Positions 2,977-61,555 of a stretch of 64,000 nucleotides of DNA are shown here, one piece after another. Both the position numbers and the translations under genes were made by a program. Source of the DNA: a virus (taxonomy: Duplodnaviria > Heunggongvirae > Uroviricota > Caudoviricetes); IMG/VR virus record IMGVR_UViG_3300032050_000069, one strand, 5' to 3'. The notes under the pieces are model-generated. The model worked only from the letters and a program-made list of their open reading frames with translations. It was not told the origin of the DNA and did not search any database. The number at the start of each line of letters is the position of its first letter. The stretch's first letter is position 1.

Positions 2977-4236
2977 GTGGGGTTAGTAAATGAGGCTTTC
3001 TGCCTTGCTCCGTGGATACATACATATAATGGAACATTAGGAGAAAGGAGAGTATGTTGTATTTCATCATTAGAATTAGGAAAGGGTTCAACTCTTTCCG
3101 ATTCCTTTAATGGGGATGAAATAAGACAGCTGAGAAAGGATATGATTGCGGGAAAACAAATAGAATCCTGTAATCTATGTAATAACCAACCTTATGAAAA
3201 CACTTACAAATTTCATTTTAACGGTAATTACAAATACCTAATAGATGAAGTTATAAATAATACAAAAGAAGATGGGACTTATACAGGTCTTCCCATCACA
3301 TTTGATTACCGAAATGATTTATGCAATTTAAAATGTAGAATATGTGGTAGTTCTGCATCATCATCAATCAGAGCAGAATTCACTAAATTCGGTAATTATC
3401 AAAAGGAATCGGAATTACTTTCCGGCACCGAATCCCGCAATCTTTCGGAACTTCAATTAGAAGAAATGTTATTCCTAATTGAAAATACCGATATAAAAGA
3501 AATCTATTGGGCGGGAGGAGAACCTCTTTTCAATATTAATCACTATAAGGTTTTAAACCGTCTTATTGAATTAGGAAAAACCAATGTATTCTTACGATAC
3601 AATACCAATTTTACTAACATTACATTTAGGGAGTTTAATTTTTTAGATATAATTGCTCACTTTGATAGAGTTCACTTTTATTTTTCGCAAGATGGTATAG
3701 GTGAAACTGCTGAGTATTTGAGATATGGACAGAATTTTTCCAAATGGGATTTTAACATTCAGCAAGTAGTAAAAATAAAAAAACCAAAATGGGAATTTTA
3801 TGTTCATTCTGTAATGACAATTCTCACTCTTTTAGATGTTGAAAAGATCATTGAATATGTTCACGAATATGAAAACATAGGAATTAGTTTTTTCAAATGT
3901 TTTTCTGATGAATATAAAGATATACTTACACCTGATTTTTACCCAAAAGAAATTATTACAAAAATAATTGAGGAGAAAATCCAAATTATAGATAATCAAT
4001 ATAGTGGAAGTAGAAAATTAGTTGCAGTAAACTTTTTGGAAAATATGTTAAAAACATTTAATCAAATAGAAAGGAGTGATATACAAACTAAACTTTCATT
4101 TGGTTATATAGATGATTTGGATAAATTGAGACCATACTCAAGAACATTTTCTGATTTTATAAAAGAAGGTAATAATGAACTTTTCCAATATTTAAGTAAA
4201 AGAAAAGCCGAAATTTCAGATAATGATAATAACTGA
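2977..4236 (+). CDS. radical SAM enzyme with N-terminal Cys-rich extension (paralog of 37335..38573)
   Basis: CNLKCRICG is a CxxxCxxC radical-SAM cluster motif. YWAGGEPLF is the glycine-rich SAM-binding motif. N-terminal CLAPW...RRVCC block is shared with the 37335 ORF (CVMPF...KPCC). Confidence 0.6.
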   Translation: MGLVNEAFCLAPWIHTYNGTLGERRVCCISSLELGKGSTLSDSFNGDEIRQLRKDMIAGKQIESCNLCNNQPYENTYKFHFNGNYKYLIDEVINNTKEDGTYTGLPITFDYRNDLCNLKCRICGSSASSSIRAEFTKFGNYQKESELLSGTESRNLSELQLEEMLFLIENTDIKEIYWAGGEPLFNINHYKVLNRLIELGKTNVFLRYNTNFTNITFREFNFLDIIAHFDRVHFYFSQDGIGETAEYLRYGQNFSKWDFNIQQVVKIKKPKWEFYVHSVMTILTLLDVEKIIEYVHEYENIGISFFKCFSDEYKDILTPDFYPKEIITKIIEEKIQIIDNQYSGSRKLVAVNFLENMLKTFNQIERSDIQTKLSFGYIDDLDKLRPYSRTFSDFIKEGNNELFQYLSKRKAEISDNDNN

Positions 4237-16231: not shown

Positions 16232-18709
16232 ATGAATCGTTTCTTTTTATTGTTGTTACTATTGCCAAATTTATTATTTTCGCAGGTAACAATCAAAGGT
16301 GTTACAAAATCCAAATCGGAAACACTTTATTTCTCCCACATTTCTTTTAAAAACCCAAATAGTGATGTTTTTACAACAATTTCAGACACCGAAGGAAAAT
16401 ACTCTATTGTATTAAAAGAAGGTAAGTATCAAATCAAATCTTCATTCGTTGGATATAAGGAATATACAAATGAGGTGGTGTTTGATAGAGATACTGAATT
16501 TGATATATTATTTCCAGATGATGCCAAACAATTATCCGAAGTTGTCGTAAGAAGTGTTTCTCAAAAGGTAACGGAAGCGGCAGTAGTAAGAACAATACGA
16601 AATAGTAATGTAGTATCGGATGGGTTATCAATTGATTTTATTAAAAAAACACCCGATAGAAATGTGGGCGATGCACTTAAAAGAGTAAGTGGGGTTACGA
16701 TACAAAACGATAAGTTTGTATTAGTAAGAGGATTAGCGGATAGATATAATTCAGCTCTACTTAACAAAACCCAACTACCATCAACCGAACCTGATAGAAG
16801 AGCATTTTCATTTGATATAATACCAACATCTCTAATAGATAACATCATAGTTTCTAAATCAGCATCAGCAAATCAACCAGGCGATTGGGCAGGTGGATTA
16901 GTCCAAATAACTACAAAAGAAGTATCTGATAACTTTTTTAATATATCTTTGGGAAGTGGTTGGGGTTCGGTTTCAACTTTGAGAGATTTCAAGTTAGTTC
17001 AACCTACCGATTTCCCCTCCACATTCCCTTCCACTTACAAATACCGAATAAGTAGTAATGGTGATAAAAGAGCTTACACTAAACTACTTACCAATCCCTC
17101 TACCGATGAATTACAATCTATTCCAAACTTAAATGGTGGATTATCATTTGGATATACAAAAGGTAAATGGAATTCATTATTTAGTTCCACAATACGAAAT
17201 GGATTTACAATAAATAATATTGATAGAAAAGATTATCAATCATCAAGTGAATTGGCGTATAATTACAAAGATGTTTTATTTACAAAAAGATTTTCCACAA
17301 ATGGTTTATTTAATTTCACTTATTTAGGTGAAAATCGATATAGTTGGAAAACATTAGTGAACTACCAAAAGGATGATACATACTTAACCCGTAATGGTGA
17401 TAACTTTGATAATGTTCAGAATGTTTTATCTACTGCATCAAATCACATTAATAATTTAGTAATTAGTTCTCAATTTGATGGTAAAATCGAAACATTAGAT
17501 TTCAATTTAGGATACACATACACTTTTAGAGAGCAACCTGATTATCGAATAAACCCAATTACAAAATCATTAGGAGTAAACGAACCATACCAAACTGCAT
17601 GGAGAGATACCTATCGTTTTTGGAGTGTGATGGATGAGAACTCTTTTAATGGTAATATAAACAAACAAATAGGAGATATAAAAATAGGTGGTGGCTATCT
17701 AAAAAGAATTAGAGGATTTAATGCTAGAATATTCCGTAATCTATCGACTGATATGTTAGATGAGATTACAAACAACACCGATAGATACACAGCCGATTTT
17801 GATTTGGGTTCTCTTTATACAATGTATGATACTGAATTTGGTAAATGGAAACTAAACACCGGATTAAGAGGTGAGTATAACCTATTCAATGTATCAACCG
17901 CAGATTTTAGTGGTCAAAAGGTAAATGTAGATAGAAAATATTTGGATATATTACCATCGCTAAATCTTTCATACAACGAAGAAAAAACAAAGTATAGATT
18001 TTCATTAAGTAAAACATTAGCAAGACCGGAGTTTAGAGAAGTAGCTAATTTTGCTTATTATGATTTCGTTAGAAACGCACAAATATTAGGAAACTCAAAG
18101 TTAGAAAAATCTGACATATATAATGTAGACCTTAAATACGAATGGTATCCAAAGGTGGGTGAGAACATTTCACTTTCTCTATTTGGTAAGAACTTTATCA
18201 AACCAATTGAACAAATCGTAGCAGATGGTTCAGTTCCATCAAACTTATTATTGACTTATACAAACCCTAATTCAGCTATCCTATATGGTGTTGAATTGGA
18301 AGTTCGTAAAAAAATAAACGATTGGTTTGATTTTTACACAAACGCTTCGGTAATGAATTCAGAAGTAGAAGTGAATGGTGTGAAAAGACAATTGCAGGGA
18401 CAATCAAACTATGTGTTAAATAGTGGAGTAAACATTCATAAAAAGAAAAATACTATTAACATAACTTACAATAGAGTTGGCGATAGAATTTCAGCAGTAG
18501 GGTTTCAGGGTTACCCAAACATCTTTGAAAATAGTAGAGATGTATTAGATTTAACCTTTTTACATAAACTTCCAAAAGGAGAAATAAAACTGGCAATAGG
18601 TGATGTATTTGCGCAACCATCGATTTATTACCAAAAGTTACAAAACCGAAATCTAATAAAAACAAACAACGAACAAACAATTTCTTTAACATTAAATTTG
18701 AATTTATGA
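16232..18709 (+). CDS. TonB-dependent receptor-like outer-membrane protein (SusC/RagA-like) with N-terminal carboxypeptidase-regulatory-like domain
   Basis: Signal peptide. ...GVTKSKSETLYFSHISF...TDTEGKYSI matches CarbopepD_reg-like. ...DRNVGDALKRVSGVTIQ...VRGLADRYNSALLNKTQLP is the TonB plug signature. 825 aa. Confidence 0.55.
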   Translation: MNRFFLLLLLLPNLLFSQVTIKGVTKSKSETLYFSHISFKNPNSDVFTTISDTEGKYSIVLKEGKYQIKSSFVGYKEYTNEVVFDRDTEFDILFPDDAKQLSEVVVRSVSQKVTEAAVVRTIRNSNVVSDGLSIDFIKKTPDRNVGDALKRVSGVTIQNDKFVLVRGLADRYNSALLNKTQLPSTEPDRRAFSFDIIPTSLIDNIIVSKSASANQPGDWAGGLVQITTKEVSDNFFNISLGSGWGSVSTLRDFKLVQPTDFPSTFPSTYKYRISSNGDKRAYTKLLTNPSTDELQSIPNLNGGLSFGYTKGKWNSLFSSTIRNGFTINNIDRKDYQSSSELAYNYKDVLFTKRFSTNGLFNFTYLGENRYSWKTLVNYQKDDTYLTRNGDNFDNVQNVLSTASNHINNLVISSQFDGKIETLDFNLGYTYTFREQPDYRINPITKSLGVNEPYQTAWRDTYRFWSVMDENSFNGNINKQIGDIKIGGGYLKRIRGFNARIFRNLSTDMLDEITNNTDRYTADFDLGSLYTMYDTEFGKWKLNTGLRGEYNLFNVSTADFSGQKVNVDRKYLDILPSLNLSYNEEKTKYRFSLSKTLARPEFREVANFAYYDFVRNAQILGNSKLEKSDIYNVDLKYEWYPKVGENISLSLFGKNFIKPIEQIVADGSVPSNLLLTYTNPNSAILYGVELEVRKKINDWFDFYTNASVMNSEVEVNGVKRQLQGQSNYVLNSGVNIHKKKNTINITYNRVGDRISAVGFQGYPNIFENSRDVLDLTFLHKLPKGEIKLAIGDVFAQPSIYYQKLQNRNLIKTNNEQTISLTLNLNL

Positions 18710-36164: not shown

Positions 36165-37342
36165 ACATATATCCAATAGATTTTGATGAAAATGCAAATG
36201 GTAAATTTGTAAAGACAACCGATTTTAAAGATAAAGATTGGGTGTTAGGCAACATTTATTGGTATCCATTTTTAGAAAAGATATACAACTTTACATTTAA
36301 TTATTCCGAAGATAATACCATATTGTTTCTTACATATAATGGTATGGCCGAATCATTAATTTCTGAAAGGCAATGGTTTTTAGATGTTAAGAGGCAATTA
36401 GATAGTGGTAATTATAAAAAGGTTGTAGTTTATCAAAATGAAGTAAATTGGGATACTTTTCATAAAATACTGGAAATAGAAGATTTTTTTTACGAAATTT
36501 TTGGAGATGATGAAAGATTTGTATTTGTTAGAAACATTTTCAAATCTAGATTTAACTTCACTAAAATAAATGCTACATATACATTTGGATGTTTTCCATT
36601 TCAATTATTCCATAACTATTCGGAAACTTTAGATTTTAATTATGAGATAGAAAAGCAGTTTCATTTATTTTCAGCAAATTGTAATGTAAAAGAAGAAAGA
36701 CTCCATTTTTATCAATTTTTACAAAAGGGGAATTATTGGGATAAAGTAAATACATCGTTTTTTCTTCCATTATATAATAGGAATAAAAAAAGGTTTGAAA
36801 TTTCAGATTTTGTAAATGAAAAATTTTTACATGCAAATACCGGAAATACGAACTCTTTTGTTTCTCATTTGGGAGAATTGGATTTAAGTATTGGGTATCA
36901 TCCCAAAAAATTAAAATATGATGATTTCAATCAAGTAAAAAACTTAGCATTAAATGATAGTGTTGAATCTTTATTTCAAGTAATTTTTGAAACCCGTTAT
37001 CATTCTCCTTGTGGCATTGTATTAAGTGAAAAGATTTTTAAGGGTTTTTGTTACAAGTCTCCATTTATAGTTTTTGCTCAATATGGTGTAATTAAATTAC
37101 TCAAAGAATTTGGGTTTAAAACATTTGATTGGTTGGTAGATGAGAGTTATGATAATGAATTGGATGATAAGAAAAGATTTGAAATGGTTTTAGCGGAAAC
37201 TAAAAAATTATTAGATACACCATTCGATGAACTTAAATCTAAAATAGAAAAAAATTATGATGTATTAGAGCATAATCATAAAATGGTAAATGAATTTGCC
37301 TTATCAGAAATAGATAAAATATATAAATTATTCGATGTATAA
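36149..37342 (+). CDS. putative glycosyltransferase, GT10 fucosyltransferase-like (paralog of 40707..41933)
   Basis: FQVIFETRYHSPCGIVLSEKIFKG resembles the GT10 FxxxFEN(S/T)...(T/S)EK motif. C-terminal ~120 aa alignable with the 40707 ORF. Confidence 0.35.
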   Translation: MGNIINIYPIDFDENANGKFVKTTDFKDKDWVLGNIYWYPFLEKIYNFTFNYSEDNTILFLTYNGMAESLISERQWFLDVKRQLDSGNYKKVVVYQNEVNWDTFHKILEIEDFFYEIFGDDERFVFVRNIFKSRFNFTKINATYTFGCFPFQLFHNYSETLDFNYEIEKQFHLFSANCNVKEERLHFYQFLQKGNYWDKVNTSFFLPLYNRNKKRFEISDFVNEKFLHANTGNTNSFVSHLGELDLSIGYHPKKLKYDDFNQVKNLALNDSVESLFQVIFETRYHSPCGIVLSEKIFKGFCYKSPFIVFAQYGVIKLLKEFGFKTFDWLVDESYDNELDDKKRFEMVLAETKKLLDTPFDELKSKIEKNYDVLEHNHKMVNEFALSEIDKIYKLFDV

Positions 37343-38573
37343 TAAAGAAACATTTTGTGTGATGCCGTTTATGCACTTTTCCGTTTTTCAGGATGGAAAG
37401 GTAAAGCCGTGTTGTATGGCAAGTGATTTCTTTGAAGAGAACTTTAATGATTATGTTGATTTTGAACAATTTTATAAAAACGAATCTTATGAAAAATTAA
37501 GAGAGGATTTAAAAAGTGGAATAAAGAATAAGATATGTGATGCCTGTTGGAAAACCGAAGAAAGAGGTGGGAGAAGTTTTAGGCAAGAAAAGAATACACA
37601 TTTTCAAAAACAATATGATAAACTTATAAAAGGTGAATCTGATAAAAACGAATTGGTATTTTTAGATGTAAGATTTTCTAATCAATGTAATTTTAAATGC
37701 CGAATGTGTGGAGAGAGGGATTCTACAAGTTGGTATGATGAAAGAGCTGAGTATTGGGAAAAGGAAGTTGTAGATCCTGTGAGAGAAAAACTTAAACAAT
37801 GGAAATTAGACCACAGAGTATATGAACACATTGCTCCATTTAATAAAAAGAAACTTCACATTCTTAAAAATGATTTTAATAAAGAAGAATTAGAGCATTT
37901 GGAATATGTTTATTTAGCAGGAGGAGAACCATTGTACACAAGAAAAGTATGGGATTTCATAGAAATTATACCACATCCTAAAAATGTGACACTACAATTT
38001 CAAACAAACTTTTCTATATTAGAATACAAAGATACTTCTATTTTTGAATTCACAAAAGGATTTAAAAATGTAGTTTATTCTATATCATTAGATGGATTGT
38101 TTGAGACGGGGGAATTTCAAAGAACTAATTTTAAAACACAAAACTTCTTATCTAATCTAAAAAAATTAAACGAAGAGGTAAAGAATAATCCTAACATTAG
38201 CTATGATTTTACCTTTACCGCAACTTTATTAAATGTATTTCAATTTTTTGAAACCTATGATTACCTAATTGATAATGGGTATATAGCAGATTATTCTAAC
38301 ATTAGATTACAAATAGTAAGTTGGCCGAAACATTTAGATGCTAAAAACTTTGGATTAGAAGCTGAAATAGAAGAGTATTTTAGTAGAACTGAAATAAAAG
38401 GAGTTGAAAAGAATCCTTATTTATTGGGAGATATAAAAAATTACTTATTACATATTAAACAAGGGATAGAGGGTGATAAAGAAGAACACTTAACAAATCT
38501 AAAAAATTACTTAAATTGGTCTTCACTTTACAATAACCTACCGATACCAAAACATTTACATAAATTTTTATAA
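37335..38573 (+). CDS. radical SAM enzyme, paralog of 2977..4236
   Basis: CNFKCRMCG (CxxxCxxC), YLAGGEPLY, N-terminal CVMPFMHF...KPCC. Confidence 0.6.
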   Translation: MYNKETFCVMPFMHFSVFQDGKVKPCCMASDFFEENFNDYVDFEQFYKNESYEKLREDLKSGIKNKICDACWKTEERGGRSFRQEKNTHFQKQYDKLIKGESDKNELVFLDVRFSNQCNFKCRMCGERDSTSWYDERAEYWEKEVVDPVREKLKQWKLDHRVYEHIAPFNKKKLHILKNDFNKEELEHLEYVYLAGGEPLYTRKVWDFIEIIPHPKNVTLQFQTNFSILEYKDTSIFEFTKGFKNVVYSISLDGLFETGEFQRTNFKTQNFLSNLKKLNEEVKNNPNISYDFTFTATLLNVFQFFETYDYLIDNGYIADYSNIRLQIVSWPKHLDAKNFGLEAEIEEYFSRTEIKGVEKNPYLLGDIKNYLLHIKQGIEGDKEEHLTNLKNYLNWSSLYNNLPIPKHLHKFL

Positions 38574-54624: not shown

Positions 54625-55028
54625 AAAAATTATTAGTAGTGGCTTTGGTACTCGGAATAAGTATCAATGCGAAAGCGCAGGAGGTATTTGCTTCTGCAAC
54701 AAACAAAGCGGTAGATGGTTACCTAACTTTGGGTTACATTAAAAATGGTTGGGGAGTTTTTATCGGAAGTAAATACAACGATAATAACCTTATATCACCA
54801 AAAAGTGGAACGATTTCCAACCAAATGAAATACGGTGTGATTAAAACTATCGCACAAGATAAATGGATGGCGGGAGCAGGTGTTCAACCGACATCAGATG
54901 GGCATAAGGTAAATGCCTTCATAGGGTATAACCCACTAAAATCTAAAGACCTAAAACTTTGGATGATAGGAAACATTGTAGGAGATACTTTTACACCTGG
55001 TTTAGGTTTATCTTACAAATTAAAATAA
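54621..55028 (+). CDS. small secreted outer-membrane beta-barrel-like protein
   Basis: ATG 54621 (MKKLLVVALVLGISINAKAQ signal peptide). Alternating amphipathic strands. C-terminus ...GLGLSYKLK. Confidence 0.35.
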   Translation: MKKLLVVALVLGISINAKAQEVFASATNKAVDGYLTLGYIKNGWGVFIGSKYNDNNLISPKSGTISNQMKYGVIKTIAQDKWMAGAGVQPTSDGHKVNAFIGYNPLKSKDLKLWMIGNIVGDTFTPGLGLSYKLK

Positions 55029-55075
55029 AAAAGCTTGGAAGTTTGGAAAAACTTTCTTATATTTGAAGAATAATA
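55028..55075 (+). promoter_or_regulatory. promoter cassette copy 1 (GCTTGGAA ... TTCTTATATTTG)
   Basis: First of four about 45-nt cassettes repeated at 55246-55293, 55400-55437, 55497-55537. Confidence 0.45.
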
Positions 55076-55245
55076 AAATAAGTTCTTTAAAATAGCAGGC
55101 GGGAGGTGAGGTATCTCGTTGGTCTCATAAGCCAAATTAACTAGGTTCGATTCCTAGGCGTTGCAACAAATCTACACTACTAGATTTTTGTGAGAGTAGT
55201 ATTCAGACGGTATCCTTAACAGGGCTTGGATGAGGTTCACAAAAA
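55076..55245 (+). ncRNA. small RNA 1 with isolated tRNA-like T-arm
   Basis: CTAGG-TTCGATT-CCTAG T-arm-like hairpin, but no foldable acceptor/anticodon arms. Downstream ACTACT...AGTAGT hairpin. Lies between promoter cassettes 1 and 2. Confidence 0.3.
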
Positions 55246-55278
55246 AAATTACAAAAATGCTTGAAACTTTGAAAAAAC

Positions 55279-55291
55279 TTCCGTATATTTG
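55279..55291 (+). promoter_or_regulatory. class-I promoter motif TTCCGTATATTTG (cassette copy 2)
   Basis: Preceded by ATGCTTGAAACTTTG -33-like element. Confidence 0.45.
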
Positions 55292-55307
55292 TAATAACAA
55301 AATGAGA

Positions 55308-55400
55308 TAGTGGTTGAAGCCAACATCTAATAAAACCGAATGTGTAACTACCCGGCGCGTGGTAGGATAAAGCCGGACACCACTACTTCATTTTGTTAAA
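55308..55400 (+). ncRNA. small structured RNA 2
   Basis: Nested hairpins: AGTGGT...ACCACT, GTTG-aagc-CAAC, CTACC-cggcgcgt-GGTAG. Ends in a T-rich stretch. No ORF. Confidence 0.35.
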
Positions 55401-55424
55401 AAAGATTTGGAAATACGAAAAAAG

Positions 55425-55437
55425 TTTCGTATATTTG
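55425..55437 (+). promoter_or_regulatory. class-I promoter motif TTTCGTATATTTG (cassette copy 3)
   Basis: Preceded by GATTTGGAAATACG. Confidence 0.45.
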
Positions 55438-55449
55438 TTAAAGTTTGAA

Positions 55450-55500
55450 ACTTATAGGTGATGAAAGATACTCGGTTTCAAATGGAAAAAAAAGTTGTTA
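55450..55500 (+). ncRNA. short hairpin RNA 3
   Basis: TTTGAAAC ... GTTTCAAA 8-bp stem followed by an A-rich tail. Confidence 0.25.
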
Positions 55501-55524
55501 AAATGCTTGGAAATTAAAAAAAAC

Positions 55525-55537
55525 TTCCGTATATTTG
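55525..55537 (+). promoter_or_regulatory. class-I promoter motif TTCCGTATATTTG (cassette copy 4)
   Basis: Preceded by ATGCTTGGAAATT. Drives the large structured region. Confidence 0.45.
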
Positions 55538-55559
55538 TAACAACAAAGAAAAGTTCTTT

Positions 55560-56790
55560 AAATTATTGAAACTAATTTCTATATAGTAACTTTGTGTTAC
55601 ATAATAGAGTGGCCGCATATGGTCGTTAAATAAACTTCGAAAGAAGGATAAAGTGAATCGGTTTGGTTTAATCGATTTGCGGCTCCTCCCCCGTAAGGGA
55701 GATGAGCTCGAGTATGCAAGTGAGGTATCACAAATGCTTAGTATCTGAGGGTAACACTTTAGGAGAGGAGTAGAGGTGACTGGGCAAGTGTAGATTGTTC
55801 AGTTGAGGTAGGAATACCAATAAGAATAACTCATAGAATTAATGCAAGAAGTAAAGACTTAATCTCTCTTTATCATTGCGTGATTCAATACCAAAGTTAT
55901 CTTAAAATCAAATTAGGGAAACCTTTTGAGATAAGATAGTGTACAGGTGGTGCTGTTACCATCCTTTTATAGAGTGTACCAACACCTATAAATGAAGATG
56001 ACTTAAAGTATGACGATAGGGATATCGTATCGGGTAGTAAAGTATTCCGTTGTTCAAAAGATAACGGAGCTTAAGGCAAACCACTACCTGAAACCATCTA
56101 CAAACCAAACTCATTTTTACTTCGGTGTAAAAACTATAAATAAAAATAAGAAAAAGAGTTTGCCAGTTACATCCGAAAGGTGTCTACATAGTAGTGAGTT
56201 GTTCACTGCCACAGACCTCCTCAAGGGGAATGTGATTCATTTGAAAGGTTTCTAACACCGCAAGTGTGAATCTGCTCGGCAGAGTAGAAGAAAATGAGTA
56301 TGATGAGAGTAAGATGTAACTCTAAGATTGGTTGGCTATACCAACCGACATTGAATTGGTACTTCTCAAAAGGAAGTGGAAACGAAAGGAAACAAATAAT
56401 CTTTCAAAAGCTGGTTCACAATATGGAGTATTCTCATCCTTATTTTATTATCATAATGGTTAATGTTGGTTCGATTCCAATGATGATAGCTTCGTAGTGG
56501 TTTCCGGCAGAAAGTTAGATGTATCTTCTAGACAACTGAAAGTTCCACTTTAATAAAAAATGAAAAAATGTATGATGGTATGGTTTTCCGTAGGGGATTT
56601 TCGCCTTAAACAATCTCAACAAAGCGAATTTAATTGATGGTAAAAACGGCTGTAGCTAGGCCTTTTGAAAGAACCACCCTACAAATCTTTCATTTTTATG
56701 AGTAACTTGTCGAGGCGGGTATTAACCAGAGCATGACTTGGATGGAGTATTTTGAAGACCGGTTACTTATTTTTTAGCTAAATTGATTTA
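55560..56790 (+). ncRNA. large GC-enriched structured non-coding RNA candidate (about 1.2 kb)
   Basis: No credible ORF. The 81-aa and 67-aa ORFs inside have no start context and arise because local GC is much higher than the flanks. Dense local stems: CTCCC-ccgtaa-GGGAG, GGTAGT...TCCGTT-gttcaaaagat-AACGGA...ACTACC, GGTTGG-ctata-CCAACC. Sits directly upstream of the tRNA array and directly downstream of a promoter cassette. Confidence 0.4.
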
Positions 56791-57016
56791 AAAAGAAATA
56801 GTGTTATACTTATATTAGAAGAAAATGAAAACTCTTAACTTACATACAGATTATCAACTGCCTACACAGAGATGTGAATGGACGGGGATTAGTATGTTTA
56901 GTGCGATAGAGAATCCGTCATTCTTGAATTTAGGCAAGGTGGATTATATTAGCACGAATAAGTTAGAGGATACCGATGTGGGATAAAATATAGATTTTTG
57001 AACAATATTAGAAGAA

Positions 57017-57047
57017 CCCTCTAACTGAAAAAGTTAGGGGGTTTTTT
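57017..57047 (+). terminator. rho-independent terminator ending the large ncRNA transcription unit
   Basis: ccctctaac-tgaaaaa-gttaggggg hairpin plus T6. Confidence 0.6.
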
Positions 57048-57054
57048 AGTTTAT

Positions 57055-57126
57055 GTTGGTGTGGCGCAGTGGTAGCGCAGTAGACTGTTAATCTATTGGT
57101 CGTAGGTTCGAATCCTACCATCAACG
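57055..57126 (+). tRNA. tRNA-Asn (anticodon GTT)
   Basis: Cloverleaf folded by hand: acceptor gttggtg/catcaac, D GCGC-agtggta-GCGC, anticodon stem gtaga/tctat loop ctGTTaa, T gtagg-ttcgaat-cctac. Confidence 0.7.
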
Positions 57127-57157
57127 CAAGAAAGGTTCTTTGACATTGTGGGAAAAT

Positions 57158-57231
57158 AGAAGATTAGCTCAGTTGGTTAGAGCATTTGGTTTACATCCAA
57201 AGGGTCATAGGTTCGAATCCTATATCTTCTA
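57158..57231 (+). tRNA. tRNA-Val (anticodon TAC)
   Basis: Acceptor agaagat/atcttct, anticodon stem tttgg/ccaaa loop ttTACat, T atagg-ttcgaat-cctat. Confidence 0.7.
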
Positions 57232-57239
57232 CAATTTAT

Positions 57240-57321
57240 GCCTGTATCGCATAGTGGCAATTGCTGGAGACTGTAAATCTCCTCTCTTCGGAGTTCGGTG
57301 GTTCGAGTCCATCTGCAGGCA
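57240..57321 (+). tRNA. tRNA-Tyr (anticodon GTA), type II
   Basis: Acceptor gcctgta/tgcaggc, anticodon stem ggaga/tctcc loop ctGTAaa, long variable arm ctc-ttcg-gag, T ggtgg-ttcgagt-ccatc. Confidence 0.65.
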
Positions 57322-57326
57322 CAATT

Positions 57327-57399
57327 GGAGCTTTCGTATAGCTGGTGCGTACGTCCGCCTGAAGAGCGGAAGGATGCGGTTCGATTCCTCAAGGCTCCA
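57327..57399 (+). tRNA. tRNA-Phe (anticodon GAA)
   Basis: Acceptor ggagctt/aggctcc, anticodon stem tccgc/gcgga loop ctGAAga, T-loop ttcgatt. Confidence 0.65.
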
Positions 57400-57406
57400 C
57401 ACAATG

Positions 57407-57481
57407 AACTCGTAGCTCAGTTGGTTAGAGCTTCTCACTTTTAATGAGAAAGTCAATGGTTCGAGTCCATTCGGGTTCACA
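57407..57481 (+). tRNA. tRNA-Lys (anticodon TTT)
   Basis: Acceptor gaactcg/cgggttc, D tagctcagttggttagagc, anticodon stem tctca/tgaga loop ctTTTaa, T aatgg-ttcgagt-ccatt. Confidence 0.7.
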
Positions 57482-57539
57482 AAATAGTTTACTTCGGCAA
57501 CGTTCTATACAAAAATCGGAGCCGGCCATATAGATGTAG

Positions 57540-57615
57540 AGGAGGCAGGTTTATCTCGCCACTTTTGGGAAGTGGAACACGTTGGTTCGAATCCAACCAT
57601 CTATACAAAATTGGA
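57540..57615 (+). tRNA. tRNA-Pro (anticodon TGG)
   Basis: Acceptor atagatg/catctat, anticodon stem ccact/agtgg loop ttTGGga, T gttgg-ttcgaat-ccaac. Enlarged D-loop. Confidence 0.55.
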
Positions 57616-57621
57616 ATATAA

Positions 57622-57695
57622 CTCAATTGGTTAGAGTGTCATCCTGATACGGTGAAAGTTGAAAGTTCGAGTCTTTCTATTCCAACAAATAAGGT
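57622..57695 (+). tRNA. tRNA-Ile (anticodon GAT)
   Basis: Acceptor tggaata/tattcca, anticodon stem tcatc/ggtga loop ctGATac, T gaaag-ttcgagt-ctttc. Confidence 0.65.
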
Positions 57696-57776
57696 AATCG
57701 TTCCCAGAGTTGGTGTGGCCACATCCGGACTCAAAAAAAGTAAAGTTACAGATGGATGCGTAACGCCTTATTAACT

Positions 57777-57848
57777 ATCTCCTTGGTGCAATGGCTAGCA
57801 TACCGGTCTCCAAAACCGTTGATAAAAGTTCGAATCTTTTAGGGGGTG
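57777..57848 (+). tRNA. tRNA-Trp (anticodon CCA)
   Basis: Acceptor atctcct/agggggt (two G-U), D gtgc-aatggcta-gcat, anticodon loop ctCCAaa, T aaaag-ttcgaat-ctttt. Confidence 0.55.
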
Positions 57849-58051
57849 CTAAATGAATAAAACTATGAAAATAAACTTTGATTTAAAAAACAATTATCCA
57901 AGTATAGAATTTTGCTACAACAATAAATGTGTTATTATAAGGTATTGGGGTGGATTAAAATTTGATAAAGTTGTTATTTACGGCGGTGAATAATATAAAT
58001 GTAAAACTATGAAACAATTATTTGACAAGCATTAGTTAAACCTAATGCAAA

Positions 58052-58243
58052 ATGAAAGAAGAAAGAGTAAAACAAATGAATCAAATCTACAACTATTGTA
58101 TGATTTGTAACAAACGAAATGGAAGTTGGTATTATGATTGTCATCCATCATCGTTCAGAGCAAAAAGACATGGTAGTGGTAAGGTTGTAAGAGTAAGAGA
58201 GTGTAGAAGTTGGAAACACAGCCGAAAGACTCAATGGAAATAA
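58052..58243 (+). CDS. small basic Cys/His-rich protein (possible Zn ribbon) embedded in the tRNA array
   Basis: 63 aa. CMICNKRNGSWYYDCH ... CRSWKH. Confidence 0.3.
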   Translation: MKEERVKQMNQIYNYCMICNKRNGSWYYDCHPSSFRAKRHGSGKVVRVRECRSWKHSRKTQWK

Positions 58244-58247
58244 CGAT

Positions 58248-58319
58248 GGCTCTTTGGTGTAACGGATAGCACACAACACTACGGATGTTGGAGTAAGGGT
58301 TCGAATCCTTTAGGGGCTA
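58248..58319 (+). tRNA. tRNA-Arg (anticodon ACG)
   Basis: Anticodon stem caaca/tgttg loop ctACGga, T aaggg-ttcgaat-ccttt, acceptor ggctctt/aggggct with G-U pairs. Confidence 0.6.
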
Positions 58320-58325
58320 CAATAG

Positions 58326-58396
58326 GGTGGATTGTCCGAGAGGCGAGGAGGTGGTCTGCAAAACCATTCACATTGGTTCAAATCCAATATCCACCT
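58326..58396 (+). tRNA. tRNA-Cys (anticodon GCA)
   Basis: Acceptor ggtggat/atccacc, anticodon stem gtggt/accat loop ctGCAaa, T attgg-ttcaaat-ccaat. Confidence 0.6.
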
Positions 58397-58401
58397 CAAA
58401 C

Positions 58402-58471
58402 TGCGTGGCTTAGTGGAAAAGAGTTATCTCTCATAAGGATGACCAATTGAGTTCAAACCTCAAACACGCAA
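58402..58471 (+). tRNA. tRNA-Met-like (anticodon CAT), atypical D-arm
   Basis: Acceptor tgcgtgg/acacgca (one mismatch), anticodon stem tatct/ggatg (two G-U) loop ctCATaa, T ttgag-ttcaaac-ctcaa. Could be elongator Met, initiator, or Ile2. Confidence 0.45.
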
Positions 58472-58479
58472 CTTAATAT

Positions 58480-58551
58480 GGTGTTTATTGTGTAAGGGTA
58501 GCACGACAGATTGTGGTTCTGTTAGTATGGGTTCGAATCCCATTATTCACC
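58480..58551 (+). tRNA. tRNA-His (anticodon GTG) with extra 5' G(-1)
   Basis: Anticodon stem acaga/tctgt loop ttGTGgt, T atggg-ttcgaat-cccat, discriminator C and an additional 5' G consistent with His identity. Acceptor has two T-T mismatches. Confidence 0.5.
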
Positions 58552-58616
58552 CCCAACCCCGAGTTCTGGAGCTGGTATCTCCTCTTACCCGAATTGAGAT
58601 TAAAAACTACCAAAAT

Positions 58617-58702
58617 AGAGAGTTACCCAAGTTGGTGAAGGGGCCTGTTTGCTAAACAGGTAGGATGTAAAAGTCGCAAGAGTTCGAACCTCTTACTCTC
58701 TA
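58617..58702 (+). tRNA. tRNA-Ser (anticodon GCT), type II
   Basis: Acceptor agagagt/actctct, anticodon stem cctgt/acagg loop ttGCTaa, about 17-nt variable arm, T aagag-ttcgaac-ctctt. Confidence 0.6.
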
Positions 58703-58710
58703 CTCAAAAT

Positions 58711-58785
58711 GCCCGTATGGCGGAATTGGCATACGCAATGGTCTTAGAAGCCATCCAATTGAAGGTTCGAATCCTTCTATGGGCA
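58711..58785 (+). tRNA. tRNA with anticodon TAG (Leu decoding) but type-I (short variable arm) architecture
   Basis: Acceptor gcccgta/tatgggc, anticodon stem atggt/gccat loop ctTAGaa, variable region only 6 nt, T gaagg-ttcgaat-ccttc. Confidence 0.5.
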
Positions 58786-58806
58786 CAAAACTAAAAAAGT
58801 AATAAT

Positions 58807-59262
58807 ATGGAATACAAACGGCTATACGATGGAGAAAAAGTTAGTTTGATTGATTATCTAAATGATTATCTTCAAACGAATAATGATGTAGATATACTTA
58901 TCGGATGTGATTCACAAAACTATGTTGATAAGACAATATATGCCATTGTAGTTGCCTTATATCATAGAGGTAAAGGTGCGCATGTTCTTTATAGAAGATG
59001 GAATACACAAAGAGAAAGAGTAAGGGCAACCAGATTATTAAATGAAGTTTGGTATGCTATTGAAGTTGCTGAAAGTATTAAAAATGCAGGATTACCGAAG
59101 GTTAAATGGATTGATATTGATTTGAATCCTGATCCTCGATATAAATCAAACGAAGTGTTCAGACAAGCAGTTGGTATGGTGGAAGGAATGGGGTATGCGG
59201 TTAGATATAAAACATTAGGCCCAATTGCTACATACGCTGCTGACCATATCGTAAAGGGTTAA
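58807..59262 (+). CDS. hypothetical protein
   Basis: 151-aa ORF between tRNA sub-clusters. Confidence 0.3.
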   Translation: MEYKRLYDGEKVSLIDYLNDYLQTNNDVDILIGCDSQNYVDKTIYAIVVALYHRGKGAHVLYRRWNTQRERVRATRLLNEVWYAIEVAESIKNAGLPKVKWIDIDLNPDPRYKSNEVFRQAVGMVEGMGYAVRYKTLGPIATYAADHIVKG

Positions 59263-59288
59263 ACTTTTTTTGGATATATCAGATATTT

Positions 59289-59300
59289 TTCGTATATTTG
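59289..59300 (+). promoter_or_regulatory. class-I promoter motif TTCGTATATTTG
   Basis: 6 nt upstream of ATG 59307 (possibly leaderless or near-leaderless). Confidence 0.45.
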
Positions 59301-59306
59301 TAAACG

Positions 59307-59729
59307 ATGAAGATAATCAATTGGGATAAGTTAAGGTATAAGTTTATTATATTAGCAGGTATGGATTTGGCTATTGATACAACATATACCACCGAAGATG
59401 AATTGGGTAAAACTACCTATTGCTTTACTATGTGTGATAGTGATTCGGTTGGGGAAACTTTTATAGAAGTGTTTCTTAAAGAAGGTGAGTTTGATGAATT
59501 TTTAATGAGTGTTAATTTACCTCAACAACAAATCACTCCGAATATAAAAAGAGTATTTAGAAGAAAAGACCTTTTAGATATAAATGAATTTATGAAACAA
59601 ATGGGAAGCGAATTAGTTAAAAATAGTATGGTAAATAGTTATTTAAATTTTTTAAGTGGTCTTAAACAAACTAAATTAAAAGCATCTAATAATACATTTG
59701 CATCCCATTCAATAAATTTACCATTTTAA
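59307..59729 (+). CDS. hypothetical protein
   Basis: 140-aa ORF. Confidence 0.3.
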   Translation: MKIINWDKLRYKFIILAGMDLAIDTTYTTEDELGKTTYCFTMCDSDSVGETFIEVFLKEGEFDEFLMSVNLPQQQITPNIKRVFRRKDLLDINEFMKQMGSELVKNSMVNSYLNFLSGLKQTKLKASNNTFASHSINLPF

Positions 59730-59730
59730 T

Positions 59731-59802
59731 GCTCGGTTGGACTAGGGGTTAGGTCACATCCCTTTCACGGATGTAGCACGGGTTCGAATCCCGTACCGAG
59801 TA
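59731..59802 (+). tRNA. tRNA-Glu (anticodon TTC)
   Basis: Acceptor gctcggt/accgagt, anticodon stem catcc/ggatg loop ctTTCac, T acggg-ttcgaat-cccgt. Confidence 0.65.
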
Positions 59803-59810
59803 CATAATAG

Positions 59811-59884
59811 GCCTCCGTAGCTCAGTTGGCCAGAGCTCCTGATTTGTAATCAGGTTGTCGTTGGTTCGAATCCGACCGGAGGCT
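59811..59884 (+). tRNA. tRNA-Thr (anticodon TGT)
   Basis: Acceptor gcctccg/cggaggc perfect, D gctc-agttggcca-gagc, anticodon stem cctga/tcagg loop ttTGTaa. Confidence 0.7.
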
Positions 59885-59889
59885 CAAAA

Positions 59890-59961
59890 GGTCTATTAGT
59901 GAAGTAGTTATCATATCACACTGTCACTGTGAAGTAAAGGGAGCGTAACCCTTATAGACCG
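59890..59961 (+). tRNA. tRNA-Asp-like (anticodon GTC) with non-canonical T-loop AGCGTAA
   Basis: Acceptor ggtctat/atagacc perfect, anticodon stem tcaca/tgtga loop ctGTCac. T-stem aaggg/ccctt but loop agcgtaa lacks the T54-Psi55-C56 consensus. Confidence 0.45.
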
Positions 59962-59965
59962 CAAT

Positions 59966-60039
<74 letters not shown>

Positions 60040-60053
60040 CAAACAAATAAAAT

Positions 60054-60509
60054 ATGAAAATAACAATTACGAAATTATTGATTTTGTTTATCATAACAAT
60101 TGCCTTTATTCCACATAATAATGAAGTGGTAAAAAGTGAAGAGCAAATTGTAGATGACATAATTGAAAGGAAAAGACCAGATTATCATTTGGTAACGGCG
60201 ACGACATATTCAATTACCGAAGAAGAAACTGATTCAACTCCATTAATTACCGCAAGTGGTTACAAATTGGATAGTATAAATCCAAAGAAACAAAAGGTAA
60301 TAGCAGTTAGTAGAGACCTTAAACGAAAGTTAAAATTTGGGGAAAAAGTAAGAATTAAAGGAGCAGGTAATTTAGATGGTATTTACTATGTAAGGGATTT
60401 GATGAATAAACGATTCCGAAATAAGATAGATATACTTATTAATCCTGATGAAGATGGGAATAAGTTTACGAAAGTAAAATTGTATGCTGTAAATAAAATT
60501 TTAAAATAG
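60054..60509 (+). CDS. secreted or membrane-anchored hypothetical protein
   Basis: Hydrophobic N-terminus LLILFIITIAFIP. 151 aa. Confidence 0.3.
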   Translation: MKITITKLLILFIITIAFIPHNNEVVKSEEQIVDDIIERKRPDYHLVTATTYSITEEETDSTPLITASGYKLDSINPKKQKVIAVSRDLKRKLKFGEKVRIKGAGNLDGIYYVRDLMNKRFRNKIDILINPDEDGNKFTKVKLYAVNKILK

Positions 60510-60529
60510 CTTGTTTTCTTTCAATCGTT

Positions 60530-60541
60530 TTCGTACATTTG
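60530..60541 (+). promoter_or_regulatory. class-I promoter motif variant TTCGTACATTTG
   Basis: 11 nt upstream of tRNA-Leu(TAA). Confidence 0.4.
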
Positions 60542-60552
60542 ATTTAAATAAT

Positions 60553-60636
60553 GCCGGAGTGTTGGAATGGTAGACAAGATTGACTTAAAATCAATTGAGC
60601 TGAAAGCTCGTGTGGGTTCGAGTCCCACCTCTGGTA
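60553..60636 (+). tRNA. tRNA-Leu (anticodon TAA), type II
   Basis: Acceptor gccggag/ctctggt, anticodon stem attga/tcaat loop ctTAAaa, variable arm gagc-tgaaa-gctc, T gtggg-ttcgagt-cccac. Confidence 0.65.
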
Positions 60637-60648
60637 CGTGAATTTTAA

Positions 60649-60722
60649 GGGGGATTAGCTCAGTTGGCTAGAGCGTTTGATTTGCATTCAAAAGGCCACA
60701 GGTTCGACTCCTGTATTCTCCA
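60649..60722 (+). tRNA. tRNA-Ala (anticodon TGC)
   Basis: Acceptor gggggat/attctcc (G-U pairs), anticodon stem tttga/tcaaa loop ttTGCat, T acagg-ttcgact-cctgt. Confidence 0.65.
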
Positions 60723-60737
60723 CCAAAATAAAACAAT

Positions 60738-60929
60738 ATGAAAAGATTTACAATTACAGGCGTAAGAACAATCGATGAGTATGTTACTTACACCGTTGAA
60801 GCAGAAACCGAAGATGATGCAATTGAATTGGTAGAGAGTGGTGAGATTGAAGATAATGGTGATTTCTGGCAAAAGGAAACATCAGGTGGTGAGGATTTCA
60901 CTATAACTGAAGTAGAAGATATTGATTAA
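60738..60929 (+). CDS. small acidic hypothetical protein
   Basis: 63-aa ORF, highly acidic C-terminus. Confidence 0.3.
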   Translation: MKRFTITGVRTIDEYVTYTVEAETEDDAIELVESGEIEDNGDFWQKETSGGEDFTITEVEDID

Positions 60930-60937
60930 AGATATAT

Positions 60938-61056
60938 GCCGGTGTGGCGGAATGAATGGGTTTGAATTCGAATAGAAACCATTAGACGTCCTGAATTCTA
61001 GATAGGGGGTGTATCCGAAATGGACATCGTATAGGTAACCAATCCTTTCACCGGCA
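60938..61056 (+). ncRNA. unknown structured small RNA (about 119 nt) closed by a tRNA-like acceptor stem
   Basis: Perfect 7-bp closing stem gccggtg/caccggc followed by a discriminator-like A. Internal hairpin aatgGTTTgaattcgaatagAAACcatt. Long-range gacgtcc/ggacatc stem. No anticodon or T-arm could be folded. Confidence 0.35.
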
Positions 61057-61115
61057 CCTTTATTTATCGTTGAAAGAAAAGATAATTCATTTTATCATCA
61101 GATTAAACGATGTTA

Positions 61116-61189
61116 GGGCTTGTAGCTCATTCGGTTAGAGCAACGCACTCATAATGCGGAGGTAATAGGTTCGATTCCTATCTGGCCCA
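61116..61189 (+). tRNA. tRNA-Met (anticodon CAT), second copy (initiator or elongator or Ile2 unresolved)
   Basis: Acceptor gggcttg/ctggccc, D tagctcattcggttagagca, anticodon loop ctCATaa, T atagg-ttcgatt-cctat. Confidence 0.6.
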
Positions 61190-61203
61190 CCAAACAAACA
61201 AAA

Positions 61204-61275
61204 GCGGATGTCGTATAATGGTTATTACTCCATCCTTCCAAGTTGGAGACGTAGGTTCGATTCCTATCATCCGCT
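61204..61275 (+). tRNA. tRNA-Gly (anticodon TCC)
   Basis: Acceptor gcggatg/catccgc perfect, anticodon stem ccatc/gttgg (one T-T) loop ctTCCaa, T gtagg-ttcgatt-cctat. Confidence 0.55.
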
Positions 61276-61410
61276 CAAGTGGGCCATTGTGGATAGGCCA
61301 GAAGAAAAATAGATGTTTTTCGTTCACAGAAACTCAAGTACCCATACCGCTAACGATGGGCTAAGTAAGATACAATTCCGTACTGCGGGGAGTAGAATGC
61401 TTGAGATTAT
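61276..61410 (+). ncRNA. structured small RNA candidate between tRNA-Gly and tRNA-Gln
   Basis: GGCC-attgtggata-GGCC hairpin. Then a roughly 90-nt element closed by ctcaag/cttgag containing hairpins cccat-accgctaacg-atggg and tact-gcgggg-agta. Confidence 0.3.
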
Positions 61411-61481
61411 TGCCCGATGGTGTAGCGGTAGCACAAATGTTTTTGGTGCATTTAGGGTTGGTTCGAATCCAGCTCGGGTAA
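61411..61481 (+). tRNA. tRNA-Gln (anticodon TTG)
   Basis: Acceptor tgcccga/tcgggta (U1-A72 as in bacterial tRNA-Gln), D gtgt-agcggta-gcac, anticodon stem aatgt/gcatt loop ttTTGgt, T gttgg-ttcgaat-ccagc. Confidence 0.6.
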
Positions 61482-61555
61482 CATTTTTATAAACGATTGA
61501 TTTCCAATGGCTTATTTTCTCCCTTTTTCTTGGAAAATTCAACAATTTTTACTAT

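Follow-up and report, generated by a model that had tools for sequence, protein, structure and literature searches.

A GOLLD RNA of the env-38 type and its linked RNA elements upstream of a tRNA array in a viral sequence

Introduction

GOLLD RNAs are among the largest and most elaborate RNAs of bacteria and phages, and their function has been a puzzle since 2009. The present work concerns a GOLLD RNA on the plus strand of the Caudoviricetes record IMGVR_UViG_3300032050_000069 (IMG/VR), of which a stretch of 64,000 nucleotides (nt), hereafter called the window, was analyzed. The closest described system is env-38, a GOLLD RNA solved by cryo-electron microscopy as a hollow D7 cage of 14 subunits (PDB 9MEE; Kretsch et al. 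2025, PMC12286853). In each env-38 subunit, residues 1-420 make up the 5' domain and residues 421-833 the 3' domain, with a disordered internal linker, and the subunits are held together by ten bridges, the residues of which are given in Supplementary Table 2 of the same study; GOLLD cages were found to assemble at nanomolar concentration, and a ribosome pull-down was reported (PMC12286853). According to a 2026 review, the elements P9, P11a-c and P21b set the 14-mer env-38 apart from the 12-mer GOLLD of S. agalactiae. In a single system, an L. brevis prophage, from which both observations derive, GOLLD was seen to build up during lytic growth and yet to be dispensable (PMC7567579).

An earlier note on the window, made from its letters, had drawn attention to the interval at about 55560-56790, which was described as devoid of credible coding capacity, GC-enriched and full of nested stems, preceded by a promoter of its own, closed by a strong terminator and located beside a tRNA cluster. 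A phage RNA of the GOLLD, ROOL or HEARO kind was proposed or, as a fallback, a new class of large RNA, and Rfam scans, covariation among homologs and protein homology were named as checks.

Identity, extent and fold of the GOLLD RNA

Screening of the whole window against Rfam at the gathering threshold gave 23 tRNA matches plus GOLLD (one other family only). The GOLLD model (RF02032), which represents the conserved 3' domain only, matched 56030-56440 with 303.4 bits, about twice the gathering score of 150 (E = 7e-86), and the match was untruncated, covering model positions 1-416 of 416. Moreover, the env-38 sequence (taken from Supplementary Table 4 of PMC12286853, in the PDF text minus about 17 nt) aligned end to end with 55609-56440 (+) over both domains, from the first helix (ATGGCCGC.. 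vs. GTGGCCGC.. in the env-38/window alignment) to the last hairpin, with approximately 78% identity, and the lengths were nearly equal (832 nt in the window vs. 830 nt for the env-38 insert, plus GG). The hairpin AGG-GAAA-CCU in the 5' domain was the equivalent of env-38 L11a. A motif scan of IMG/VR with a 30-mer of the 5' domain yielded 30 viral contigs; similarity to 32 relatives started at about 55545-55611, and similarity to the first set of relatives ended at 56441-56446. Membership of the GOLLD family is therefore near certain, and these alignments support the reading of the flagged stretch as a GOLLD RNA of the env-38 type, in both identity and architecture (fold and parts list), with a probability of roughly 0.93. 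The GOLLD body is not a new RNA class, and one more copy adds little alone.

The structure of the RNA was evaluated on an alignment of 18 non-redundant GOLLD sequences including env-38 (A2). RNAalifold predicted 182 pairs on A2, with compensatory changes in 113 of them, while the ribosum-scored consensus comprised 213 pairs in which 96.2% of the cells were paired (79.4% in shuffled alignments; 0 of 500 reached the observed value) and 125 pairs showed double changes (84 in shuffled alignments; 0 of 500). When the partners were slid by 1-3 columns, pairing fell to 38-42%. Both GOLLD domains covaried: helices in the 3' domain (columns 471-911) were 90-100% paired with many double changes, and nearly all RF02032 helices were paired in the window sequence according to the cmscan alignment. 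In agreement with these results, the minimum free energy (MFE) of the 832-nt core was lower than that of its shuffles (-238 vs. -192 ± 9 kcal/mol; z = -5.07). Homology and covariation show a fold with two domains, the cap (5') and the ring (3'), which an A-rich linker connects (Table 1).

Most of what had been noticed beforehand held up in this comparison. A GOLLD-like phage RNA does lie beside the tRNA cluster, its accession being RF02032 instead of the RF01998 that had been quoted, and covariation among homologs was found. Among the stems read off by eye, CTCCC/GGGAG (55686-55702) corresponded to a covarying hairpin of the 5' domain, and GGTAGT..TCCGTT..AACGGA..ACTACC (56034-56090) and GGTTGG/CCAACC (56331-56347) to GOLLD helices of the Rfam model. 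The GC enrichment was real, although only modest (0.382 in 55609-56440 and 0.364 in 55560-56790, vs. 0.322 in the window and 0.313 in the flanking open reading frames, ORFs). On the other hand, the size of about 1.2 kb was an overestimate with respect to the 832 nt of conserved GOLLD, the fallback of a new class gave way to the RF02032 and env-38 alignments for the main body, and a single transcript of 1.2-1.8 kb closed at 57017-57047 did not match the contents of the stretch, in which GOLLD is followed by a tRNA-like element, then by another RNA and by a small ORF; that is, the flagged 1.2 kb is a set of several linked elements rather than a single RNA.

Two other identities were weighed at this point. 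Self-splicing introns, tmRNA, RNase P RNA and ROOL- or HEARO-type elements are comparable in size and ornate structure, and ROOL shares the phage and tRNA setting (PMC5737381); however, neither the gathering-threshold scan of the window nor the permissive one (54900-57150, E ≤ 1) yielded a match to ROOL, HEARO, group I/II introns, tmRNA or RNase P RNA, and beyond GOLLD and tRNAs the permissive scan gave only chance-level matches (trpB motif, His_leader, PK-HAV and Spd-sr07). An identity of this kind is considered extremely improbable. The same holds for a protein-coding region or a decayed gene, an interpretation raised by two mechanically listed ORFs of 81 (56010-56255) and 67 amino acids (56294-56497): neither matched any Pfam or PHROG family, both lie within the RNA matched by Rfam, and the substitutions among relatives keep base pairs, not reading frames. 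With open frames of at most 35 amino acids in 56500-56800, the earlier statement that 55560-56790 lacks credible coding capacity was borne out.

Table 1. Features detected or predicted around the GOLLD RNA (positions refer to the window).
Feature	Position	Strand	Remarks
Cassette 1, boxA-like motif (55082-55090), tRNA-Met(CAU)-like gene (55095-55165) and conserved element (55166-55245)	from 55027	+	repeat family
Cassette 2 and 108-nt hairpin RNA	55253 (cassette); 55293-55400 (hairpin RNA)	+	z = -3.3; outer stem AACAAAATGA../..TCATTTTGTT
Cassette 3 and small hairpin of about 45 nt	55399 (cassette); 55439-55492 (hairpin)	+	z = -2.2
Cassette 4, presumed GOLLD promoter	55499-55538	+	-33-like TTG at 55507-55509; -7 box TATATTTG at 55529-55536
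boxA-like leader motif AGTTCTTTAAATTATTGAAA	55552-55571	+	core GTTCTTTAA at 55553-55561
Leader hairpin GTAAC-TTTGT-GTTAC	55586-55600	+	between boxA-like motif and GOLLD P1; read from sequence
GOLLD 5' domain ("cap" of the cage)	55609-56029	+	env-38 residues ~1-420; helices covary (A2 columns 1-469)
GOLLD 3' domain ("ring")	56030-56440	+	full RF02032 match; covariation in A2 columns 471-911
A-rich variable linker inside the 3' domain	~56092-56164	+	unpaired in consensus; GC 0.274; aligns poorly among relatives
tRNA-like minihelix	56448-56490	+	7-bp acceptor-like stem 56448-56454/56483-56489; T-arm repeat family D3
S-domain	56491-56690	+	stem 56496-56500/56545-56549 around hairpins; multi-helix junction closed by 56590-56595/56677-56682
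HP hairpin	56699-56777	+	outer stem 56701-56711/56757-56767; interior GAGGCnnGTATTAACCAGAGCATGACTTGGATGGnGTATTTTGAAG; then U-run
Small ORF, proposed leader peptide	56825-56986	+	53 amino acids, MKTLNLHTDYQLPTQRCEWTGISMFSAIENPSFLNLGKVDYISTNKLEDTDVG; no Pfam or PHROG match
Intrinsic terminator	57011-57047	+	16-bp stem and U-tract; MFE -22.3 kcal/mol, z = -5.75

Cage contacts and possible role

In order to compare the contacts of the env-38 cage, its bridge residues were located in the window RNA by an offset-tolerant mapping. About 56 of the 61 were identical, vs. 78% identity overall, a figure to be read with caution in favor of a shared cage, as the mapping used the env-38 text minus about 17 nt and single positions as well as the exact count are approximate. 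A 29-mer (56252-56280) carrying the symmetric kissing-loop hairpins L21a and L21b was identical to env-38, every pair of kissing loop B4 was kept (with one G-C replaced by G.U), the P11a GAAA hairpin was present, and both P11a/L11a and L21a/L21b aligned with env-38 without gaps. Because the bridge residues and the elements specific to the 14-mer are kept, the same 14-mer cage was inferred: given also the 78% identity to env-38, the window RNA would quite probably self-assemble, protein-free, into a D7 hollow cage of 14 subunits with the linker inside.

What such a cage would do is the weakest step of the proposed mechanism. During lytic growth, it would be part of a translation-supply module of the phage, in which its most likely task would be to hold or shield cargo related to translation, for instance tRNAs or parts of ribosomes; this translation-linked container role is offered as a tentative suggestion. 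The cage could instead act as an anti-defence decoy or sponge, its target being a host RNase, a nuclease that cuts anticodons or an immune factor that senses RNA. Location on phages, late accumulation and dispensability in the laboratory are typical traits of counter-defence genes, the tRNA arrays beside GOLLD are themselves thought to counter tRNA-targeting defences, and GOLLD carries tRNA-like pieces. However, the empty interior with its internal linker and the ribosome pull-down (PMC12286853) favor encapsulation, and the decoy is judged distinctly unlikely, more so than the container.

Promoter cassettes and the boxA-like leader

A 40-nt cassette (TTG...N20...TATATTTG) was present in four copies upstream of GOLLD, starting at 55027, 55253, 55399 and 55499, and its 21-nt core had no match elsewhere in the 64 kb within 3 mismatches, which fits the promoter cassette described in the earlier note. 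Its -7 box is taken by us to be of the Bacteroidota TAnnTTTG type, after the Bacteroides promoter consensus. A search with the pattern TTG-N19-TAnnTTTG had missed the cassettes owing to wrong spacing, since these have 20 nt. The fourth copy is presumed to drive transcription of GOLLD, which, judging from the consensus, would start at about 55543-55546.

The boxA-like motif was located 16 nt past the -7 box of this cassette. Plus-strand copies of GTTCTTTRA were restricted in the 64 kb to 55082, 55553 and 57135, each just before a stable-RNA gene. Among relatives, G[TC]TCTTT[AG]A was detected within 130 nt 5' of GOLLD in 37 of the 43 distinct loci, mostly at -49 to -57 or -81 to -83, and a strict TAnnTTTG box ended 15-45 nt 5' of the motif in 21 distinct relatives. 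The general boxA consensus was used, together with the calls of the CRISPR-array supplement. The leader motif was read as boxA because its core equals boxA calls that were published 5' of CRISPR arrays for Bacteroidia (e.g. AGTTCTTTGACATGTTGAAA) and other phyla (PMC7665894, supplementary file 4), and because antitermination by boxA and Nus factors shields long transcripts that are not translated against Rho (Stringer et al. 2020, PMC7665894). If so, it would recruit NusB/NusE and render RNA polymerase Rho-resistant over GOLLD, by antitermination as in rRNA operons and CRISPR arrays, a proposition whose odds we regard as evenly balanced. No paper tying GOLLD to boxA or antitermination was found in the searched literature.

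The leader hairpin that separates the motif from P1 lies outside the cage-forming env-38 construct, and in relatives its slot was occupied by a hairpin of other sequence (e.g. ACAACAC-TTCG-GTGTTGT). Near the start of the tRNA array, a third boxA-like motif, GGTTCTTTGACATTG (57135-57143, +), separates tRNA-Asn from tRNA-Val, and the related locus L042 showed TGTTCTTTGACATATGG just 5' of its tRNA-Val.

The tRNA-like minihelix at the 3' end of GOLLD

Starting 8 nt past GOLLD, a minihelix was found with a T-arm of 5-bp stem and canonical 7-nt T-loop (GTTGG-TTCGATT-CCAAT, 56465-56481), a D-loop remnant (AATGGTTAAT) and the discriminator C56490, without anticodon arm. It gave neither an ARAGORN tRNA call nor an Rfam tRNA match at E ≤ 1, and is accordingly classed here as a minihelix that resembles a tRNA. 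In relatives, the acceptor stem showed compensatory changes in three versions (TTATCAT/ATGATAG, TTATCTA/TAGATAG and TTTTTAC/GTAAAAA), and the first pair of the T stem was G.U, G-C or A-U. Of 41 distinct GOLLD loci, 34 had a tRNA or tRNA-like element in this 3' position. In 14 of them it was a tRNA called by ARAGORN, mostly tRNA-Gly(TCC), that starts 6-10 nt after GOLLD; 8 had a minihelix of the window type, about 7 a tRNA-Gly-like element with degenerate T-arm, and 5 another minihelix type (CGCAAG..AGAGGTTCGTTTCCTCT..TTGCG).

The acceptor/T-arm part of a tRNA is what RNase P recognizes. The minihelix was interpreted as a processing signal because exactly this part is retained, in the form of a coaxial acceptor and T stem-loop of the RNase P minihelix substrate type that is kept by compensatory change. 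Cleavage by RNase P is predicted at the 5' side of the minihelix, 8 nt past GOLLD, and would set the 3' end of the RNA, for which we see about an even chance. Several of the tRNA genes that abut GOLLD in relatives were irregular: the tRNA-Gly-like genes of L049, L051 and L065 (first ~105 nt after GOLLD) carried a hairpin insertion of about 25 nt in the D-region, the tRNA of L001 (3455-3528) had an anticodon loop of irregular size for which ARAGORN gives a 2-nt anticodon, and the tRNA of L002 (~3855-3960) contained a large insertion. These odd tRNAs may serve as signals for processing and not in decoding.

The same observations were also weighed for a scheme in which GOLLD is a separate transcription unit that ends at about 56441-56450 or at the hairpin named HP with its U-run (56699-56777; see below), the minihelix is a decaying tRNA-Gly gene and GTTCTTTRA is a promoter-proximal or RNase site, not boxA. 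The last hairpin is weak, a U-rich run follows GOLLD in most relatives and another follows HP in most of its versions, some relatives have a clear intrinsic terminator right behind GOLLD, and the slot holds both full tRNA-Gly genes and visibly degenerate copies, suggesting decay. However, the minihelix keeps exactly the acceptor stem, the T-arm and the D-loop GG, compensatory in three variants, and a second, unrelated minihelix type is found in the L003 group, a pattern that fits selection on a processing signal over neutral decay; in addition, the leader motif equals published boxA calls and stands in the transcribed leader, 15-45 nt after a -7 box. The scheme of a separate unit is thus regarded as somewhat unlikely.

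A second structured RNA downstream of GOLLD

Two further elements, named S-domain and HP, were delimited between the minihelix and the small ORF. The S-domain was restricted to a "long spacer" class of relatives, with about 200 nt between the tRNA-like element and HP. In an alignment of 16 distinct S-domain sequences (A4), its 29 pairs were 91.5% paired (78.8% when shuffled, 0 of 500) and 16 of them showed double changes (reached in 1 of 500 shuffles), while slid partners were 39-50% paired. The HP core, which has a near-invariant interior of 45 nt, recurred in 9 more viral contigs and in 39 metagenome contigs, and three contigs were identical to the window there. In 29 distinct HP versions (alignment A3), the 11-bp outer stem was 96.2% paired (83.6% when shuffled, 0 of 500; 23-47% when slid), with double changes in 8 of its 11 pairs. 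A full-length GOLLD ended 100-376 nt 5' of HP, on the same strand, in 31 of the 32 loci with enough upstream DNA. At E ≤ 1, no Rfam family matched the S-domain or HP, either with the sequence of the window or with that of the divergent relative L047. Folded as one RNA, 56441-56800 was no better than its shuffles (z = +0.75), and the structure claim for this interval is therefore based on covariation. By that evidence, 56491-56775 holds another structured RNA, which is conserved and in tight linkage with GOLLD, and S-domain and HP, being absent from Rfam 15, may represent a new RNA motif.

This second RNA also bears on the idea that the whole of 55560-56790 is one new class of large ornate RNA, as about 1.2 kb are free of any notable ORF and 56491-56775 covaries as well, lacks an Rfam match and is nearly always on the same strand as GOLLD. 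Two thirds of the stretch, however, are unambiguous GOLLD, similarity to most GOLLD relatives ends at 56441-46, the two parts are set apart by a tRNA or a tRNA-like element, as a rule a site of processing, and many GOLLD loci are without the downstream RNA, some having a terminator directly after GOLLD. A single new class is consequently very improbable, and two adjacent RNAs are the preferred reading.

The HP interior resembles the promoter cassette (GACTTGG...CGTATTTTG), and its origin as a collapsed copy was considered; the spacing is far too short for a promoter, and the likeness is taken as a resemblance only. A scan with the 17-mer GTGAATCTGCTCGGCAG gave 13 viral matches, 11 of which were without wider similarity to the window. 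Three contigs (L056, L070 and L076; Ga0315904_10037611, Ga0222712_10006094 and JACCDJ010143649.1, respectively) were identical to the window over the at least 280 nt compared around HP; therefore, the same or a near-identical phage was assembled from several independent samples.

The small ORF, the terminator and the tRNA array

Of 49 loci, 46 had a small ORF after HP; its 29 distinct versions were 22-53 amino acids long and had in common the motifs M[KR]T..HT, W.G and, mostly, a C-terminal LEDTDVG. The strong terminator noticed earlier was confirmed as such, although it is placed after this ORF, about 570 nt beyond the 3' end of GOLLD. The tRNA array starts 615 nt 3' of GOLLD, with tRNA-Asn at 57055, 8 nt past the terminator, as the first of 22 tRNA genes (57055-61482). 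In 27 of 27 aligned relatives, the first tRNA was 5-12 nt past the terminator U-tract, a gap so short that no promoter fits in it.

A segment of the ORF codons, AGTTAGAGG (56961-56969), was complementary to the 5' arm of the terminator, CCTCTAACT (57018-57026), and is proposed as an antiterminator strand. In relatives, the ORF segment tracked the terminator arm while the amino acids changed (GTTAGGGG/CCCTAAC, GTTAAGGG/CCCTTAAC and GTCAGGGT/ACCCTGAC). Over 27 relatives, 90.5% of the cells of this alternative helix were paired (25-54% when slid), and 4 of its 9 pairs showed double changes (2 of 500 shuffles reached this), a modest covariation in a highly conserved helix. These patterns lend moderate support to a leader-peptide attenuator, probably formed by the small ORF and the terminator, that would gate the tRNA array: once a ribosome had come to the stop codon, the antiterminator strand would be covered and the terminator would form, whereas a stalled or absent ribosome would permit read-through into the array. 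Sub-threshold Rfam matches to His_leader, trpB-motif and Thr_leader were obtained, and the attenuator region fits no family above threshold. Inside the array, 58807-59262 (+) encodes a protein of 151 amino acids with an RNaseH_like domain (PF04308, E = 2e-18; phrog_11311), which could take part in RNA processing.

Upstream small-RNA cluster and phage context

The first three cassettes each preceded a small element (Table 1). The tRNA-Met(CAU)-like gene, missed by ARAGORN, scored 31.3 bits with the Rfam tRNA model (gathering score 29), had 6 of 7 acceptor-stem pairs and was 82% identical to the called tRNA-Met of L008. The conserved element that follows it (75-80 nt) comprises a hairpin ATCTA..TAGAT with TTTTT and then a stem TGTGA..TCACA; it was approximately 96% identical in L045, vs. 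74% for GOLLD, its fold was unexceptional (z = -0.6), and it was found in one further viral contig only (L054). The 108-nt hairpin RNA was conserved in L030 and L045, and the hairpin RNAs of cassettes 2 and 3, which have no Rfam match, are candidate small RNAs of the phage. The order of elements was the same in L045, without cassette 4.

Relatives of the GOLLD RNA were IMG/VR viral contigs or huge phages; in INPHARED, only two distant matches were obtained, to the uncultured phages LR745206 (635 kb) and LR756502 (642 kb), which are without usable annotation. All 42 ORFs of at least 180 amino acids in the window are on the plus strand. The protein at 16232-18709 (+) has the architecture of a SusC-like TonB-dependent receptor (CarboxypepD_reg/Plug/beta-barrel) and a homolog in LR745206, and two radical-SAM-like proteins (2977-4236 and 37335-38573, +) are, like it, unusual phage cargo. 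From the SusC-like protein and the TAnnTTTG promoters, a large phage of a Bacteroidota host is probable.

A possible stable RNA operon

The order of the elements allows a speculative proposal, in our judgment rather doubtful as a whole: in this phage lineage, GOLLD would head a "stable RNA operon" similar to rRNA operons and made up of promoter, boxA, GOLLD, tRNA or tRNA-like punctuation, a new structured RNA and a leader-peptide attenuator that opens the tRNA array on ribosome stalling. Several points weigh against the reading of GOLLD and its production given in the sections above, or against parts of it. The boxA-like motif is absent from 6 of the 43 distinct GOLLD loci and 7 of the 41 loci have a terminator or an ORF in place of a tRNA-like 3' element, that is, neither is obligatory; one mismatch stands between the acceptor and T stems of the minihelix, which has no tRNA score; and the transcription start, the RNA ends and the abundance at this locus are all inferred. 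The sample of relatives is biased, having been collected by motif scans, and the assignment of the host is indirect. Furthermore, a PHROG scan of 10 large proteins of the window gave almost nothing and no phage structural gene, so that the assignment to a phage is based on the relatives and the gene layout.

Should the proposal be correct, a stable RNA operon would tie the RNA cage to the sensing and supplying of translation capacity, the RNA after GOLLD would be a new RNA family and the attenuator a new mode of phage tRNA gene regulation. The locus is unusually legible and a close kin of the solved env-38, and thus offers handles on GOLLD production (Nus antitermination and release by RNase P). 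It also presents candidate partners of GOLLD that are physically linked to it, namely the HP/S-domain RNA, the small peptide and the tRNA array.

Comparison with known systems

With env-38 (RF02032), the window RNA shares its helices, including the P11a GAAA loop and the L21a/L21b hairpins, a tRNA-Met gene upstream and the A-rich internal linker; it differs from env-38 in about 22% of the sequence, including the G-C to G.U change of B4. The operon context of the window (promoter cassette, boxA-like leader, minihelix, downstream RNA and small ORF) was not found in the env-38 literature searched. The GOLLDs of S. agalactiae (12-mer, PDB 9L0R) and of Lactobacillales and Mycobacterium belong to the same Rfam family, have the conserved 3' domain and are tRNA-adjacent in prophages or tRNA arrays, but lack P9, P11a-c and P21b, have unrelated 5' domains and are 12-mers. 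Some mycobacterial GOLLDs carry a tRNA inside the linker, whereas in the window the linker has none and the tRNA-like element is at the 3' end. ROOL (RF03087) is likewise a large ornate phage RNA near tRNA islands; it too assembles into a cage of RNA only, and no function is known for it. It has another fold and another stoichiometry (8-mer), and gave no match here at E ≤ 1.

The leader motif resembles the boxA of rRNA operons and CRISPR arrays (PMC7665894) in having the core GTTCTTT[AG]A in the leader of a long untranslated transcript, 3' of its promoter, but it is encoded by a phage and stands 5' of GOLLD and tRNAs. The proposed attenuator is similar in layout to those of the trp, his and thr operons: in the window, a short ORF ends about 25 nt before the terminator, the 3' part of the ORF can pair with the 5' arm of the terminator and the genes that would be regulated follow at once. 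It has three segments instead of four and no run of a single regulatory codon, and these genes are tRNAs rather than biosynthetic enzymes. Processing of a 3' end through a tRNA-like structure is familiar from MALAT1/mascRNA, mitochondrial tRNA punctuation and RNase P minihelix substrates. As in these, a tRNA or a reduced acceptor/T-arm mimic abuts the end of a long non-coding RNA, at the point where RNase P would free that RNA by cleavage; in contrast to them, the setting here is a bacterial phage, and many relatives carry a genuine, presumably functional tRNA-Gly in the same place.

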